The notes beneath the pieces are model-generated. The model saw only the letters and a list, made by a program, of their open reading frames with translations, did no database searches and had not been told where the DNA came from. From a virus (Duplodnaviria > Heunggongvirae > Uroviricota > Caudoviricetes): 7,292 bases of DNA. Below, piece by piece: positions 2,499 to 7,292 of this stretch. The stretch lies in the IMG/VR virus record IMGVR_UViG_2690315994_000013. One strand, written 5' to 3'. Numbering within the stretch: position 1 is the stretch's first letter; every line of letters begins with the position of its first letter. Made by a program: the position numbers and the translations under genes.

Positions 2499-2777
2499 TT
2501 ACCTCCAGATGCGTTGCTGGAATGTGCGGGACGGACGCGGTGGGCGTTCAGAGTAAGGAAGCCTGACGGAGATTATCCAGTGACGATAATCGAGGCTGAG
2601 GGCTTTCTTAATCTCGTATCCGTGTCTGCGGTAGCACTGAATTAGCCATTCAGCTTGTTCTTCAGTACATGGGGGATGCTGGTACCAATCAGATTTGAAT
2701 GTGCGGGAACGCCGCCCGTGCCTGCTGGCAAAGACAGCTGAATTATCAGAATTGTGTGATTTGGTATTGTGCGCCAT
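2499..2777 (-). CDS. Hypothetical protein (92 aa from ATG at 2777; the ORF track extends to a TTG at 2858)
   Basis: Open frame translationally coupled to the DUF968 gene. The longer ORF-track start (TTG at 2858) lies inside the upstream terminator T-tract, so the internal ATG (MAHNTKSHN...) is preferred. No recognisable motif; it occupies the position of rem in K-12 Qin, but similarity is unverified. Confidence 0.4.
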   Translation of the reverse strand: MAHNTKSHNSDNSAVFASRHGRRSRTFKSDWYQHPPCTEEQAEWLIQCYRRHGYEIKKALSLDYRHWIISVRLPYSERPPRPSRTFQQRIWR

Positions 2778-2850
2778 CGTCTTTCTCTGCTGGCGCAGCA
2801 GGTGCCAGTTGTTCAGGCTGACGTGCGAATTGTAAACCTGAATGCCAAGA

Positions 2851-2878
2851 AAAAACAAAACCCGCCGAAGCGGGTTTT
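2851..2878 (-). terminator. Rho-independent terminator (copy 1 of a duplicated hairpin)
   Basis: Minus strand: aaaacccgc-ttcg-gcgggtttt followed by gttttttc. The core cccgccgaagcggg recurs at 4209..4222. Confidence 0.6.
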
Positions 2879-2892
2879 GTCAGTACTGAATA

Positions 2893-3042
2893 TCAAGCTG
2901 CGTGCTTGCCACTACAACTGCAAAGTGGGATCGGGAAAGGCTTCCCTTTTTTCGCGTGGCGCATTACACCATCTACACACACAGAGTAGCGAAAAATGAT
3001 CTCACATGGACAGCCACATTTGCGACAGGTACCCATTGCCAT
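2893..3042 (-). CDS. Small Cys-rich protein (49 aa from ATG 3042; 60 aa if GTG 3075), possible zinc ribbon
   Basis: MAMGTCRKCGCPCEIIFRYSVCVDGVMRHAKKGKPFPIPLCSCSGKHAA has 8 Cys including CxxC-type spacing. It lies between the peptidase terminator and terminator copy 1. SD is weak, so coding status is uncertain. Confidence 0.3.
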   Translation of the reverse strand: MAMGTCRKCGCPCEIIFRYSVCVDGVMRHAKKGKPFPIPLCSCSGKHAA

Positions 3043-3185
3043 GATTTCGTTTTCCCTGCTCACCTGTGAATCCACACAGGTTGCACTTTGTTGGGAGAAC
3101 CACTACACTTCGCTTGTCTACAAAAAGTGTTGTGATTGGATTATCTCCATACACTACGGAATGTGTTAGCGCACTTTCCGTCCCT

Positions 3186-3211
3186 AAAAGCCCTGTTAGC
3201 GCAGGGCTTTT
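3186..3211 (-). terminator. Possible weak terminator/hairpin at the end of the HTH-peptidase operon
   Basis: Minus strand: aaaagccctg-cgctaa-cagggctttt, overlapping the peptidase stop codon. Only about 4 U after the GC stem, so termination efficiency is uncertain. Confidence 0.35.
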
Positions 3212-3686
3212 ACATATAAAAATCGAACGACATCTGTTGTGTTCTCACGCCAATTGTTTCCAGTACGATATCCGCAAATGTATCTGCCTGCCATTCTGCA
3301 TCCTCAATACGAGTAGGTTCTTTAACTGAAAAGTGTAAAACTGCTTTGTGTCCAAGAAGCAAATGACCTAGCTCGTGGAAGATAACAGCAAGTGCATGCT
3401 CTTCCCCAAGGCAAGCATTCACATATATTTTATTGGGAACCGTAATTGTTAGAGAAGCGGGGTCACAATGTCCGATAGTTAGATCATACGTCAGAGCCTC
3501 CCACTCTTTGTCGGTCCTGACGTCAAGAGTAACCCCATAAATTGACAGGCTTTCAAAGAACATATCATAACGCTTTCTTTTGCGCTTTGAGGCTGTAAGA
3601 CCAATAGCATTACAGAAGTTTATAGCTCTGTAGGCTATTTCTTCTTCTTGCATCGGTGACACCCTGTTACCTCTCATTTGATACAT
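3210..3686 (-). CDS. ImmA/IrrE-family (M78-like, DUF955-type) zinc metallopeptidase, 158 aa
   Basis: HExxH motif (FHELGHLLLGH) with a downstream acidic residue pattern typical of ImmA/IrrE peptidases. The start ATG 3686 is 2 nt after the HTH gene stop, with a GAGGGG SD inside the HTH gene 3' end. A hand count on about 100 nt gave roughly 41% G+C versus roughly 57% in a sample of the DUF968 gene. Confidence 0.75.
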   Translation of the reverse strand: MYQMRGNRVSPMQEEEIAYRAINFCNAIGLTASKRKRKRYDMFFESLSIYGVTLDVRTDKEWEALTYDLTIGHCDPASLTITVPNKIYVNACLGEEHALAVIFHELGHLLLGHKAVLHFSVKEPTRIEDAEWQADTFADIVLETIGVRTQQMSFDFYM

Positions 3687-3688
3687 AA

Positions 3689-4048
3689 TTACCCCTCATT
3701 GTTATTAATCTTTTGCAATAAATCTGCAAAACTCTTTAGCTGTTCCGGCGTAAACTGCGACTTAGCGAATCCCGCTACAAGCATTTTCTGTTGCTGAGAC
3801 AAACCGTTTACTGGAACTGAGTCATTCGCAACTGCCGCTAACTCCTGTAACCCTTCAATTTCTACACCTTTGGCCTTGAAGTAAGAATCAATCTTCTTAA
3901 CCCACTTCAGAGGTATTTTTTTGCTACCAGTTTCTAAACCGCTAAGAAACGCTGGCGTAGTGCCCAGTTCTTGAGACATAGTCAGAAGAGTACTGTCAGT
4001 ATCGATCCTCGCTTTTCTAACGGCCTTACCGAATTCAGTGAGTGCCAT
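3689..4048 (-). CDS. XRE/Cro-CI-type helix-turn-helix transcriptional regulator, 119 aa
   Basis: N-terminal segment (FGKAVRKARIDTDSTLLTMSQELGTTPAFLSGLETGSKKIP) fits the XRE HTH pattern. GAGGA SD 7 nt upstream of the ATG. First gene of a two-gene operon with the peptidase. Confidence 0.8.
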   Translation of the reverse strand: MALTEFGKAVRKARIDTDSTLLTMSQELGTTPAFLSGLETGSKKIPLKWVKKIDSYFKAKGVEIEGLQELAAVANDSVPVNGLSQQQKMLVAGFAKSQFTPEQLKSFADLLQKINNNEG

Positions 4049-4075
4049 GATTTTATCCTCAATTTGTTGATTTAG

Positions 4076-4098
4076 CAGACTTGCCTAACGCAAGCCTG
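4076..4098 (-). promoter_or_regulatory. Imperfect inverted repeat between promoter and RBS of the HTH gene (candidate operator)
   Basis: cagActtgc-ctaac-gcaagCctg: 9-bp arms with one mismatch and a 5-bp spacer, placed where an autoregulatory operator would be expected. Confidence 0.3.
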
Positions 4099-4124
4099 AT
4101 GGGCGCTTAAATTCTAATTCCTAA

Positions 4125-4152
4125 AATTTACCATATACGAAAGCAAAGTAAA
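4125..4152 (-). promoter_or_regulatory. Putative sigma70 promoter of the HTH-peptidase operon
   Basis: Minus strand: TTTACT (-35-like), 16-nt spacer, TGgTAAATT (extended -10) in an AT-rich intergenic region about 80 nt upstream of the HTH start. Confidence 0.4.
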
Positions 4153-4190
4153 CCTTTTTAGTTAAAAAAATCTCCTTTAAGGGAATTTTT

Positions 4191-4224
4191 TTCACAAAAA
4201 GAACAAACCCCGCCGAAGCGGGTT
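4191..4224 (-). terminator. Rho-independent terminator downstream of hokD (copy 2 of the duplicated hairpin)
   Basis: Minus strand: aacccgc-ttcg-gcggggtt followed by tgttcttttt; same cccgccgaagcggg core as at 2861..2874. Confidence 0.55.
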
Positions 4225-4292
4225 AAGTGCGGGTGCGTTGAGGATGCCTGACACATCAGAGGTGGCGAGGGATTTCTCCCCCGCCAGGTCTC

Positions 4293-4448
4293 TTACTCCT
4301 CAGGTTCGTAAGCTGTGAAGACAGCGACCTCCGTCTGGCCGGTTCGGATTCGTACCTCGCAGAGGTCTTTCCTCGTTACCAGTGCCGTCACAATGACGGT
4401 TAAACAGATGACGATCAGGGCGATTAGCATCGCCTTTTGCTGCTTCAT
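4293..4448 (-). CDS. hokD: Hok/Gef-family membrane toxin, HokD (RelF)-like, 51 aa
   Basis: MKQQKAMLIALIVICLTVIVTALVTRKDLCEVRIRTGQTEVAVFTAYEPEE matches my recollection of E. coli K-12 HokD/RelF essentially residue for residue. AAGGAG SD upstream of ATG 4448. The ORF-track 70-aa version begins at an in-frame upstream ATG (4505) with no obvious SD. Confidence 0.85.
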   Translation of the reverse strand: MKQQKAMLIALIVICLTVIVTALVTRKDLCEVRIRTGQTEVAVFTAYEPEE

Positions 4449-4739
4449 AGCCTGCTTCTCCTTGCCTTTCGGCACGTAAGAGGCTAACCTACGTGTGTAG
4501 AGCATAGATATGGCCTCAGATTAATGTTAAGCGTCTTGCCGGACGCGTAATGTTAACTGGGGCTTTTCTCTATCTGCCTTTTGGTGTTCATGCCTGAGAC
4601 AGATAGCCTCAAGCACCCGCTGCAATTCTACTTAACTCTCCTTTTCCCGCAAACCGTTTTTATCCCCAGCGGCAAATCGAATACACCACCAGCGCCACCG
4701 CCATCGCAATTCCTACCGTTGTTAATGCTTCAGGCCAGG

Positions 4740-5084
4740 TCATCGTAAAATATCCTCCACGCTTATCAGTCCGTTCCGCTCCAGATAACTCATCGCCTTA
4801 TCCGGTAATTTGCAGTCTGGCTTCGCTTTCCTCAGTTGCCAGGTTAACTGCTTTACCAGCATGGTTAACTCATCGACCAGACGCTGATATCCCACTGGTT
4901 TGTATTCATGCAATTTACCGGCTGGCTCTGCTGCCAGCGATACCAGTGCGATTTCCAGAACAGCAATATCCATCTTATATGTGCGGATGATGTCATGGTC
5001 GATTGTGCCCGGTATGCACAGTCTCTGTGCTTCAATAGTCTCCTCTGCGTGAGCTATTAACTGCTCTCTGGTAAAAGTCGTCAT
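4740..5084 (-). CDS. Hypothetical protein, 114 aa
   Basis: Start ATG overlaps the stop of the upstream 55-aa ORF (ATGA). N-terminus (MTTFT) and [10 protein letters not shown] motif are paralogous to that ORF. No recognised domain. Confidence 0.5.
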
Positions 5085-5248
5085 GCCGTAGCCCCTTCTT
5101 GATATTTTTCAAACCAGAACACAACCGGCTCTGCTTCCAGCGATGCCAGCGCAATCCGTGCCAGTTCCATTTGTTCACCACGGGTAAGCCCGTTTTCAAG
5201 CGGATTTTTAATGAACAATTCAATACGTTCTTTGGTAATAGTGGTCAT
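5081..5248 (-). CDS. Hypothetical small protein, 55 aa (not in the ORF track)
   Basis: Hand translation: [61 protein letters not shown] 7 nt upstream; stop TGA overlaps the ATG of the 114-aa gene. Shares MTTxT and IAL(A/V)SL(E/A)AEP with the downstream gene. Confidence 0.45.
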
Positions 5249-5258
5249 GTGTTACTCC

Positions 5259-5522
5259 TTAACCCGCAGTGCTTTCAACTGATGAGGGGAACAAAATCTT
5301 TTCATCAAACCCTGCATTCATATCATGAACAGCAACACACCAATCCATCGACGAACGATTATCAAGAGCCTCCATGATTTCATCCATGCGGCGCAGGTCA
5401 TACAGGTAAATGCTTTTATCGCCAATGGTGTAAAAACCAATTTTTTTCGGTGATGGACAGCGATCAAGAACGTCCTGTAATTCGCTCAACCATGCTTGTT
5501 CTTTTTTTGTCAAAGTTGCCAT
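5259..5522 (-). CDS. Hypothetical protein, 87 aa
   Basis: ATG 5522 preceded by AAGGAGAG within the 31-bp repeat; a TGAtATG junction with the 165-aa gene. No recognised motif. Confidence 0.5.
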   Translation of the reverse strand: MATLTKKEQAWLSELQDVLDRCPSPKKIGFYTIGDKSIYLYDLRRMDEIMEALDNRSSMDWCVAVHDMNAGFDEKILFPSSVESTAG

Positions 5523-5523
5523 A

Positions 5524-5554
5524 TCACTCTCCTTTGATGCGAATGCCAGTGGTA
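5524..5554. repeat. 31-bp direct repeat, copy 1 (tcactctcctttgatgcgaatgccagTggta)
   Basis: Identical to 6018..6048 except one base (T/C). Covers the last codons (...GIRIKGE*) of the 165-aa gene and the RBS of the 87-aa gene. Confidence 0.85.
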
Positions 5555-6021
5555 CTCATTCTCCTGATTTCCCAGAGCACACGAGGAACACCACCGTTTC
5601 CGACCGGATCGCGCTTACTCCGCATGGCGACGCTTGATTCCGCCCAGCTTTTTCTTGGAGGAAGCTCTTTCACACGAACAAAACCAGCTGCGCGAAGAGA
5701 TGCTCCTGATTCATCTGCCTGGGTGTACGTAATACAACGTTGATAACCCATAGCCTTTGCTGCCCGCCAGACAGCACCATAAAGCGCGCTGTTAGCGTTG
5801 CGTTCTCCTGTGGTACATGTGCGATTTACTTCAAGCGTTAATCCATCGTCCAAATGTCGTGCAACAGGTCTACCGGCTGTCGCCACACCTATCAATTCTC
5901 CGGCATCATTTCTCAGACCAATGCTGAATTTATGCCCCACCGGGGGTTTATTGTGTCGGTGATGTCTGGATATAAACGCCTTCGCAACACGAAGAGTAAC
6001 CGGTGAAATCTGCACTCTCAC
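5524..6021 (-). CDS. Hypothetical protein, 165 aa (possibly GNAT-like fold; unverified)
   Basis: Continuous ORF bracketed by 31-bp direct repeats. Start GTG (6021 or 6015) preceded by AAGGAGAG. A central segment (GVATAGRP...NANSALYGAVWRAAKAMGY...ASLRAAGF) is loosely reminiscent of an acetyltransferase core; this is a weak impression only. Confidence 0.5.
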   Translation of the reverse strand: MRVQISPVTLRVAKAFISRHHRHNKPPVGHKFSIGLRNDAGELIGVATAGRPVARHLDDGLTLEVNRTCTTGERNANSALYGAVWRAAKAMGYQRCITYTQADESGASLRAAGFVRVKELPPRKSWAESSVAMRSKRDPVGNGGVPRVLWEIRRMSTTGIRIKGE

Positions 6022-6048
6022 TCTCCTTTGATGCGAATGCCAGCGGTA
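6018..6048. repeat. 31-bp direct repeat, copy 2 (tcactctcctttgatgcgaatgccagCggta)
   Basis: Covers the start/RBS of the 165-aa gene and the end of a 19-codon remnant ORF (VSEISYQASITAGIRIKGE*) that ends with the same GIRIKGE as the 165-aa protein. Confidence 0.85.
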
Positions 6049-6073
6049 ATTGAAGCCTGATAGCTAATTTCAC

Positions 6074-6496
6074 TCACAGTACCGTCTCCTGAAAATTACC
6101 CTGATAGAAAGCCAGTACACGCTGCATAGCTTCACTCTTCCGGCACTCGCGACAGATTATGTTTAGGCGCCTGTCGTAGCGGCGTATTTCGCCGTCTGGT
6201 AATAGCCAGATAAGGTCCGGATCAACCACAGATGGTTTCTTCAGCTTTGCCCTTGAGAGTTTTTTGCGGGCGTTTTGCCAGTCCTTGCGCGCCTGCTCAG
6301 ACGGGAATACTCCGTAACCGGAATTGTAAACATCACCACTGGCGGCCAGCTCCATGCATAAACGACCGACAGACGCATGACTGACACCAATTTCATCCGA
6401 TAACTGCCGAATCGTGCCTCGTCCGTTAAGGCGTACGAATTCCACGATCAGCCCTTTAATTTTTTCCCGCTCTTCTTGTGTAAAAACTTTTGCCAC
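6074..6496 (-). CDS. Putative winged-helix/HTH DNA-binding protein, 140 aa
   Basis: GTG start 6496..6494 with AGGAGG 4 nt upstream. HTH-like segment GTIRQLSDEIGVSHASVGRLCMELAASGDV. Function unknown; it sits directly downstream of the replication initiator. Confidence 0.5.
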   Translation of the reverse strand: MAKVFTQEEREKIKGLIVEFVRLNGRGTIRQLSDEIGVSHASVGRLCMELAASGDVYNSGYGVFPSEQARKDWQNARKKLSRAKLKKPSVVDPDLIWLLPDGEIRRYDRRLNIICRECRKSEAMQRVLAFYQGNFQETVL

Positions 6497-6536
6497 AAGC
6501 CCTCCTGAAAATTACCTCATGACCAGAAATTAACAC

Positions 6537-7292
6537 TTACCCCCTGAAGCCCGGCGGAATTTCAGTGTCCGGTTCAGAAATGTGATTCACGCAACGCTGC
6601 GCAGGCGAACGCCCCAGGCGGATAACCAGTTCATCCCATTTTTCCCGGAGTTTTGCCGGACTCATGATGTTTTTTACCCAGAACGAATCCCGCTGGAGAC
6701 GCCCAAACATTTCACAAATTTGTCTGTGAGTTCTGCCATCCAGCATCCGCATTGTGCGAACGTCATTGGCCCATGCTGTCCAGTTGGGTTCTTTCGGTCT
6801 AGTGATCTCGCCATCATCGCTGGCCGCCTGCTCGTAAAGACTCACGATTCGTCCCCAGATCCACTGTGCGCACACCAAATCTTCCTGACTTCCCCACTGG
6901 CGTTTTTTCGCACTGAACACAACCGCGTCAGGGTGTCGGGTTAAAAAATTCTGTTCAGCCGTCTGCGGGTCCGGTTGCGAAGCGTCCGGACAAGAAGATC
7001 TTTTATCTGACGGATCAGGTTTTAATACTGACGGATCGGGGTCAATCATCGCCCCCCTAATCGGCAGTTTTTTATCAACGGTTGATCCATCAAAATTTGA
7101 CGGGTCAACCGTTGAGGGGTCAATATTTGACGGGTCAACTGTTAACGGGTCATTTTTTGCCGGGCTAATTTTTCTTTTCGGTTTATATGACTCACGCGCC
7201 GCCGCCGCAGCTGCTTCGAGTTTTTCCACATTAAGCCGATAGATATTGCTTACATTACGCCCACCGACCTTACGCTCTTCCTTCGTCAGCCA
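6537..7292 (-). CDS. Replication initiation protein, O-like with DnaT-like C-terminal domain (5' end lies beyond the window)
   Basis: The frame stays open to the window edge (the ORF-track M at 7229 is an internal GTG). The C-terminus (...VNHISEPDTEIPPGFRG) resembles the E. coli DnaT C-terminus as I recall it (...SEPDSQIPPGFRG). An iteron array lies inside the gene, encoding the TVDPS/NIDPS/TVDPS/NFDGS linker repeats. Confidence 0.7.
   Translation of the reverse strand, partial: WLTKEERKVGGRNVSNIYRLNVEKLEAAAAAARESYKPKRKISPAKNDPLTVDPSNIDPSTVDPSNFDGSTVDKKLPIRGAMIDPDPSVLKPDPSDKRSSCPDASQPDPQTAEQNFLTRHPDAVVFSAKKRQWGSQEDLVCAQWIWGRIVSLYEQAASDDGEITRPKEPNWTAWANDVRTMRMLDGRTHRQICEMFGRLQRDSFWVKNIMSPAKLREKWDELVIRLGRSPAQRCVNHISEPDTEIPPGFRG
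7082..7153. repeat. Iteron array (candidate phage replication origin inside the initiator gene)
   Basis: Five 12-bp palindromic boxes of form TTGAnnnnTCAA at exactly 15-bp spacing (7082, 7097, 7112, 7127, 7142): ttgatccatcaa, ttgacgggtcaa, ttgaggggtcaa, ttgacgggtcaa, ttaacgggtcat. Followed by an AT-rich stretch at 7154..7190. Confidence 0.65.

Follow-up and report, generated by a model that had tools for sequence, protein, structure and literature searches.

A three-gene cassette between two copies of a UUCG-tetraloop terminator in an Escherichia coli lambdoid prophage, and its probable acquisition at the terminator

The 7,292-nucleotide tailed-phage sequence IMGVR_UViG_2690315994_000013 (the window, meaning the whole stretch analysed) contains a small accessory cassette located between the hokD toxin gene and an open reading frame (ORF) of 92 amino acids (ORF92). 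The cassette comprises genes for a helix-turn-helix (HTH) protein, a peptidase and a cysteine-rich protein, which together are everything between two copies of one terminator-like hairpin. The account that best fits the comparisons presented here, and which is considered likely, is that a moron with its own terminator was joined to the hokD/ORF92 site via a crossover in shared terminator sequence. A prior sequence-only reading of the window had reported the twice-occurring hairpin core, its flanking A/T runs and its bracketing of the cassette, all of which are confirmed, and had suggested acquisition by recombination at, or together with, a terminator. Both halves of that suggestion find support, since the downstream junction falls within the hairpin and the hairpin is the cassette's own terminator in contexts without hok.

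The 14-mer CCCGCCGAAGCGGG occurs exactly twice on the plus strand of the window, at 2861-2874 ahead of ORF92 (the left copy) and at 4209-4222 after hokD (the right copy), and no further site is found even when two mismatches are allowed. Around it, a direct repeat of 27 nt is preserved at 25/27 identity (2850-2876 vs 4198-4224, spacing 1348). Shuffled versions of the window contain a mean of 0.04 matches to the 14-mer, and at least two matches were obtained in 0/200 shuffles; this null is overly generous because the hairpin is a recurrent terminator, and a proper null would draw two terminators from a pool that contains only a small proportion of this type. The two copies have 23 exact nucleotides in common in most other cassette-bearing genomes, and the window has one additional single-nucleotide difference beside the right copy. 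At position 4208, directly after the right hairpin, the window has a G where nearly all other cassette genomes have a T (GGGG-TTTG vs GGG-TTTTG), which results in a shorter first U run in the hokD terminator.

Both copies are terminator-like on the minus strand, which is the strand of all real genes in the window. The transcribed strand of each reads CCCGC-UUCG-GCGGG followed by a U-rich tract, the A-runs that flank the hairpins on the plus strand being the U-tracts of the transcribed strand. With a GC-rich stem-loop, a U-tract and a sense orientation after a gene, both copies are predicted to be Rho-independent terminators. The left hairpin has a 12-bp stem followed by TTTTCTTGGC (-19.8 kcal/mol, z = -4.7) and lies 18 nt past the stop of the Cys-rich gene and ~83 nt ahead of the start of ORF92. 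The right hairpin, 70 nt downstream of the hokD stop codon, has a 5-bp stem followed by GTTTGTTCTT (-12.7 kcal/mol, z = -0.5), and with only this short stem and an interrupted U-tract it may be the weaker terminator.

The sequence-only reading had set beforehand, as a test, that prophages in which the cassette is absent should contain exactly one hairpin copy at this site, and such empty sites were found. In L002 (strain ERL06-2442) and L172 (strain MLI109), hokD directly adjoins ORF92 with a single hairpin between them, after which ORF92 directly follows. The spacer reads, in hok sense, GCACCCGCACTTAA-CCCGCTTCGGCGGG-TTTTGTTTTTTCCTGGCATTC, so that the hairpin core CCCGCTTCGGCGGG is preceded by CACTTAA. 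The hok-side flank of this single hairpin is that of the right copy in the window, and its U-tract and leader are those of the left copy; the 5' flank CACTTAA of the right copy is identical in empty, rem-type and cassette alleles. A 101-nt probe across the joint (coverage at least 80%) detected the empty junction in 2143 of 5426 complete E. coli genomes, at 90-100% identity. Cassette DNA is present in 56 of these genomes, full-length at 99% identity or above in 48, and always between ORF92 and hokD, although the host prophages vary in their Q and nin genes. In K-12 Qin and its relatives, rem is found at the cassette position with one hairpin. Cassette-less relatives carrying both hairpin copies, which had been named in advance as evidence to the contrary, were not seen among the prophages compared. 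In L007 (NZ_CP035817.1, strain E7476, 1748-2937), IS1 has removed the peptidase gene, the Cys-rich gene and all up to the late region, leaving the HTH gene alone beside hokD.

The origin of the left copy is indicated by cassettes in other contexts. A scan of viral contigs (IMG/VR) with the peptidase gave 28 loci. In L032-L035 and L039-L040, which have neither hok nor ORF92, the hairpin is found ~21 nt past the Cys-rich gene stop, and in L041, L042, L031 and L006 the stem of the cassette-end hairpin is kept and the loop differs. BLAST comparison of the window with the non-hok cassette loci returns one block, from 2848-2857 to 4165-4171, at 82-85% DNA identity. Because this homology ends at 2848-2857, and because the hairpin follows the Cys-rich gene in those loci, the left copy is the cassette's own predicted terminator, with the mobile unit including that hairpin and ending there.

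The left copy is chimeric. Its 5' flank, ACTGACAAA / GTACTGACAAA, is of the cassette type, as in L034, while its U-tract, TTTTGTTTTTTC(C/T)TGGCATTC, and the sequence beyond are of the empty-site type, as in L002; other cassette contexts have TTTTTTTATG at this position. A cassette-type 5' flank combined with an empty-site U-tract points to a hybrid produced by one crossover within the ~20 nt common to both terminators. At the upstream joint, the hokD hairpin and a modified U-tract are followed by ~35 nt found solely in cassette-bearing genomes, and cassette homology resumes at the promoter-like region. The spacer there (together with the modified U-tract, CTTTTTGTGAAAAAAATTCCCTTAAAGGAG) is confined to 49 cassette-bearing genomes and has no homology to empty sites or to cassettes in other contexts.

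The phage collection contains diverged cassettes only, the plasmid collection gave no match, and a peptidase scan with one genome per species found only four distant relatives (Actinobacillus, Pseudomonas, Methylosinus). In the Klebsiella phage ST13-OXA48phi12.4, an SppA-like gene and dinI flank the cassette; the first terminator there is a different one, and the UUCG hairpin comes 130 nt beyond it.

The hairpin also recurs as a breakpoint between alleles. When L024, L028 and L008 are compared with L020, there is 0-1 mismatch over the 1.3-kb cassette and then 13 mismatches in 120 nt. Because this jump starts 13 nt past the stem in all three, one identical cassette is joined at the hairpin to diverged ORF92 modules. 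A different insert of 653 nt, containing a gene for a 130-aa lipoprotein, occupies the same site in 255/5426 genomes, ST131 strains included; in L171 (NZ_CP103557.1, ST131) this lipoprotein moron lies at 862-1540 and is unrelated to the cassette. A partial, 12-nt duplication of the hairpin flanks it on both sides, and since only a 3-bp stem is left of the truncated hok-side hairpin, hok transcription may continue into the lipoprotein gene. In K-12 Qin, divergence of the rem allele begins directly after the hairpin. In a second phage context, what precedes the same hairpin plus downstream flank is either the cassette or an unrelated gene. In plasmid hok, hokC and the hokW of Stx phage VT2-Sakai, the hok 3' untranslated region is common up to GCACCC(GCACTTA), which is the 5' edge of the hairpin, and is then followed by other terminators or by none; this hairpin is not part of the conserved hok module. 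For the filling of L012, a joint inside the hairpin loop was considered and rejected; a better description is a degenerate hairpin beside a hok pseudogene, the joint falling after the U-tract. Cargo is likewise enclosed by duplicated terminators in L037, a Klebsiella-type phage with a tandem array of three accessory units, namely the cassette, a GNAT acetyltransferase and a TonB_C-like exported protein, each followed by the UUCG hairpin (repeats at 3852-3924, 4636-4708 and 5388-5460); a 73-nt repeat (88%) brackets the last two units.

These comparisons can be assembled into the following scheme. Both hairpins would represent the same generic Rho-independent terminator (C3GC stem, UUCG loop, U-tract) and serve leftward transcription, of which the right one would end the hok mRNA and the left one the transcript of a self-contained three-gene moron (promoter/operator, XRE-type HTH gene, M78 peptidase gene, Cys-rich gene, terminator). 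The ancestral state would be hokD, one hairpin and ORF92, and the incoming cassette would have brought a copy of this terminator along. Unequal crossover of the cassette terminator with that of hokD (~20 nt shared), occurring phage-by-phage or phage-by-prophage, would have joined the cassette to the ORF92 module, so that the change would be a gain rather than a loss. The upstream joint, ~35 nt past the hokD U-tract and without homology, was probably illegitimate, or else inherited from an unseen donor. The same terminator may later have been reused as a switch point, passing an identical cassette between diverged prophages. Short-homology recombination by Red/RecT-type phage functions or by host functions is the presumed enzymology. 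Mosaics of diverged sequences are a known product of phage recombinases, and the minimal efficient pairing segment of Red-beta is 23-27 bp (PMC3945230); the shared segment of 20-23 nt is at the lower edge of this range.

Several observations weigh against this scheme. The exact 14-mer (core CCCGCTTCGGCGGG), followed by a U-tract, also terminates the core argX-hisR-leuT-proM operon of E. coli, and sites similar to a 40-nt probe occur in all 5426 E. coli genomes, at 2-16 per genome with a median of 7. The 21-mer AAACCCGCTTCGGCGGGTTTT, which leaves out the hokD flank, is found in at least 120 viral contigs, whose flanks are unrelated and whose GC contents span 0.30-0.67. The tRNA operon terminator resembles the prophage copies in its core, its U-tract and its predicted stable hairpin, and differs in that the prophage copies have their own flanks and that the right copy has a 5-bp stem and an interrupted U-tract. 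The hairpin is a convergent, near-ideal and generic UUCG-tetraloop terminator, and because it is generic and widespread the repeat alone proves nothing about descent: the identity of the two copies is no evidence of common origin. At the upstream junction there is no visible homology, and the 35-nt spacer has no other source in E. coli. A shared segment of 20-21 nt is at or below the published Red-beta minimum. The location of the crossover in the hairpin could partly reflect the fact that only ~100 nt of spacer are free to break. No donor with the immediate precursor arrangement was found, and the polarity is drawn from frequency, diversity and the presence of the cassette elsewhere rather than from a rooted tree. 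The sequence-only reading had itself listed a ubiquitous terminator as grounds for abandoning its interpretation, and ubiquity proved true (the tRNA operon, every E. coli genome, at least 120 viral contigs); the conclusion stands nonetheless, on the empty-site and cross-context comparisons.

The most serious alternative that follows from this ubiquity is that the cassette was inserted but that each hairpin represents a very common 'ideal' terminator independently of the other, their identity being irrelevant to the recombination and the joints being illegitimate and retained by selection in the one dispensable spacer. The tRNA operon copy, the similar sites in all E. coli genomes and the unrelated viral contigs are all in keeping with such a coincidence, as is an upstream joint without homology, and with only ~100 nt free between the hok 3' untranslated region and the start of ORF92 any joints must cluster. 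Coincidence is nevertheless unlikely in view of the left copy, a hybrid so seamless that neither extra bases nor any cassette-context U-tract remain, and in view of the identical cassette that switches to ~10%-diverged ORF92 modules within ~40 nt that include the hairpin. Breaks inside the same stretch of 25-30 nt, or at its edges, are found in at least five further alleles or contexts. An E. coli genome has on the order of a thousand intrinsic terminators, as a rough estimate. With ~7 similar sites per genome among these, independent draws would seldom give neighbours that share the core.

Other explanations change the direction or the agent of the event. If the cassette were ancestral, deletion between the 23-27-nt direct repeats would regenerate one hairpin and yield precisely the empty-site sequence, and a partially deleted cassette does exist (L007, with IS1). 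This reversed polarity is very improbable, as empty junctions are ~40 times commoner and more diverse (90-100%, 2143 genomes) than cassette alleles (48 genomes, at least 99%), elsewhere the cassette family shows greater age and diversity (61-94% protein identity), the GC content of the cassette is unlike that of both flanks, and in 255 genomes the site is taken by another moron. Still less credence is given to a mobile element, with a transposase or integrase having acted on the hairpin and left the repeat as a target-site duplication or att-like core. In its favour are the direct repeats at the two ends and the short duplication (12 nt) that accompanies the second, unrelated insert at this hairpin, but the cassette encodes only the HTH protein, the M78 peptidase and the 49-aa protein, with no transposase or integrase, and there are no terminal inverted repeats (no inverted pair at 2877 and 4197). 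In L036-L042 the hairpin is present at the 3' end only, with no upstream copy, and the two copies in L033 and L034 have unlike loops and flanks and so were not produced by duplication. The generic nature of the hairpin also argues against a target-site duplication, and the cassette was never found on plasmids in the plasmid collection.

Crossover in shared terminator sequence remains the preferred explanation, and it has a speculative extension that is put forward tentatively and is rather more doubtful than not. The UUCG terminator may serve as a universal adaptor for moron exchange, with termination and recombinational portability selected together. If unrelated phages and hosts converge on a ~20-nt terminator, they would thereby provide microhomology for single-strand-annealing recombinases, and cassettes ending in this terminator could plug in behind any gene ending in it. 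This would explain the two morons at the hokD hairpin, the three tandem morons in L037 and the repeated breakpoints at the hairpin.

The designation of the cassette as typical of morons, also proposed by the sequence-only reading, is upheld at the sequence level. By the definition given in 'The moron comes of age' (PMC3594210), the cassette is additional DNA separating genes that lie side by side in related phages, all three of its own genes are conserved, it has a base composition unlike that of its neighbours (GC 0.41-0.43 over 3050-4250 vs 0.53-0.57 in DUF968 and hok), and a 12-bp-stem hairpin with a U-tract, its predicted own terminator, travels with it, as does a conserved promoter-like motif. 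The lambdoid morons of HK97 and HK022 (Juhala et al. 2000, as summarised in PMC3594210) are similar in being extra DNA with a GC contrast and promoter-like and terminator elements, spread among mosaic prophages. They differ in that the best-known examples lie in the late operon or downstream of PR', whereas the cassette lies in the early-right (nin-like) region upstream of DUF968-RusA-Q, and in having one gene rather than three. The moron site of Tree et al. 2014, also downstream of PR', is another location and was set aside.

Morons and mosaic joints at short shared sequences are already textbook phage biology, and the cassette, while a real finding, is an ordinary and well-documented kind of moron insertion at a terminator. 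In the modular theory of lambdoid phages, short conserved boundary sequences lie at module junctions. As at such junctions, and as in the relaxed homologous recombination by Rad52-like phage recombinases (De Paepe et al. 2014, PMC3945230), homology here is confined to a short joint (20-23 nt) that is reused by several alleles; the hairpin differs in being a predicted intrinsic terminator that recurs by convergence rather than a remnant of homologous genes. What the present case offers is a base-pair-resolved gain of an accessory operon by a lambdoid prophage, for which the empty site, the filled site and donor-type cassettes are all available. An ordinary terminator can mark, and perhaps mediate, a module joint, and the hokD/ORF92 spacer is a recurrent cargo site in E. 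coli prophages with at least three fillings, one of them in ST131 strains. As a caution, even an exact repeat that no shuffle reproduces may be a generic functional motif.

The features of the cassette and of the adjoining genes are collected in the table below.

Table. Positions of the cassette, the bracketing hairpins and the adjoining features in the window
Feature	Position	Strand	Remarks
92-aa ORF (ORF92)	2499..2777	-	PHROG 1212 (no assigned function); first gene past the insertion site, followed by DUF968, RusA and Q
Left hairpin, predicted cassette terminator, chimeric	2850..2881	-	Core 2874-2861, stem 2881-2854, U-tract 2860-2850
Three-gene cassette (moron body)	2882..4171	-	GC 0.41-0.43 vs 0.53-0.57 in flanks
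49-aa Cys-rich protein, cassette gene 3	2893..3042	-	MAMGTCRKCG...CSCSGKHAA; conserved CxxC...CxC
Internal hairpin between peptidase stop and Cys-rich gene	3186..3215	-	AAAAGCCCUG-loop-CAGGGCUUUU; -20.5 kcal/mol, z = -4.0
147-aa ImmA/IrrE-type (M78) zinc metallopeptidase (predicted), cassette gene 2	3210..3653	-	HELGH motif
119-aa putative XRE-type HTH protein, cassette gene 1	3689..4048	-	RefSeq: helix-turn-helix domain protein
Promoter-like motif	4125..4165	-	-35 TTTACT 4152-4147, 16-nt spacer, extended -10 TGgTAAATT ending at 4125
Spacer, origin unassigned	4172..4192	-	Between the hokD U-tract and the cassette 5' boundary
Right hairpin, predicted terminator at the hokD transcript 3' end	4193..4224	-	Stem-loop 4222-4209; U-rich tract to ~4193
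hokD toxin gene	4293..4448	-	Pfam HOK_GEF 81.6 bits; annotated hokD in RefSeq
sok region match	4443-4618		Rfam sok RF01794, 117 bits vs gathering score 59
mok frame overlapping hokD	to 4505	-	Part of the hok/sok locus

The HTH gene adjoins the peptidase gene in all relatives of the cassette, and the three genes remain together down to 61% peptidase identity, Actinobacillus included. The HTH protein matches Pfam HTH_31 (15.9 bits) and HTH_3 (13.5 bits), both under the cut-off, and the PADLOC profiles HTH_VI (1e-6) and capH (0.0097). The peptidase is detected by Pfam Peptidase_M78 at 24.6 bits (cut-off 22) and by PHROG 87, metallo-protease, at 4e-13. An NCBIfam search gave nothing above the cut-off, and among solved structures the peptidase has no sequence relative and the HTH protein has weak matches only.

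Pairs of an XRE repressor and an M78 peptidase are known from ImmR/ImmA of ICEBs1 and DdrO/IrrE of Deinococcus (PMC6868357, PMC12828697) and from CapH/CapP of cyclic-oligonucleotide-based anti-phage signalling systems (CBASS). In these a small HTH protein adjoins a HEXXH M78 peptidase in one operon, and in the cassette a putative XRE-type HTH protein has this position. By analogy, a stress signal may cause the peptidase to cleave the HTH repressor, which would de-repress the operon and with it the small protein. The similarity to CapH/CapP is weak (capH E = 0.0097, capP E = 0.003, with the HTH protein under the Pfam cut-off). In contrast to all three systems, the 147-aa peptidase matches the catalytic core only (positions 70-108 of the 242-position capP profile, with the C-terminal sensor domain of the full CapP/IrrE architecture absent), and a 49-aa Cys-rich protein always follows. 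PD-lambda-2 (Vassallo et al.) was considered as the identity of the cassette and rejected, as it has a HigB-like toxin and an Xre-peptidase fusion.

The small third gene lacks annotation in most RefSeq records, and only two clusters of its product are present in a collection of 5.8 billion proteins. The protein is kept down to 61% identity, with 39-48% in Actinobacillus and a second Klebsiella phage. Because all 17/17 nucleotide differences between the window and L034 in this gene are synonymous, it is a real gene under purifying selection, and this conserved, mostly unannotated gene deserves to be flagged. The internal hairpin ahead of it is a possible attenuator or internal terminator and could attenuate expression of the small protein; the Klebsiella phage cassette retains its stem with a different loop.

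At the other end of the cassette, the promoter-like motif (TTGAnn/TTTACT-16 nt-TGgTAnnnT) is overlapped by a palindrome, TTAAC-N7-GTTTA (4165-4149), which is a possible operator. Motif and palindrome are kept in nine cassette contexts, ~80-100 nt upstream of the HTH gene, and the sequence further upstream is unrelated among these. As a promoter the motif is putative; it matches only 8/12 consensus positions, a weak match, and is absent from the promoter scan listing.

The gene order of the window is that of the early-right region of an E. coli lambdoid prophage, with replication and nin-type genes, hok/sok, the cassette, ORF92, a DUF968 (ydfU-like) gene, RusA and the Q antiterminator, and a prophage of strain B19374 is near-identical to it (98.6% across the full window). 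The locus that owns the right hairpin is a hok/sok type I toxin-antitoxin locus, in which the Hok/Gef ORF, the mok overlap and the sok antisense region are all present. Sub-threshold Rfam matches on the left hairpin (RsmY and istR, and isrK on the plus strand; 19-21 bits vs gathering scores of 45-57) were rejected as terminator-driven.

The region upstream of hokD (~4650-6070 in the window; L009-L012, between hokD and a DUF977 gene) is a second variable cargo site. In other prophages it is filled by a RelA/SpoT-domain protein, by a KwaB-like protein with QueH, by a 798-aa AAA ATPase or by a zeta toxin; the defence-like genes among these (RelA/SpoT, KwaB-like, AAA ATPase, zeta toxin), which were found in partial matches, were discounted as fillings of the hairpin site because they lie upstream of hokD and so outside it. 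Two further repeats occur at gene ends and starts, namely a 46-nt direct repeat at 5509-5554 and 6003-6048 (85%) and an exact 15-mer, CTCCTGAAAATTACC, at 6086-6100 and 6502-6516, and both look like boundary sequences common to neighbouring nin-region modules. Finally, three 30-nt tandem units with internal dyad symmetry (TCAACGGTTGA...TTTGACGGG) at 7075-7164, within a 230-aa ORF, resemble origin iterons inside a replication-initiator gene.

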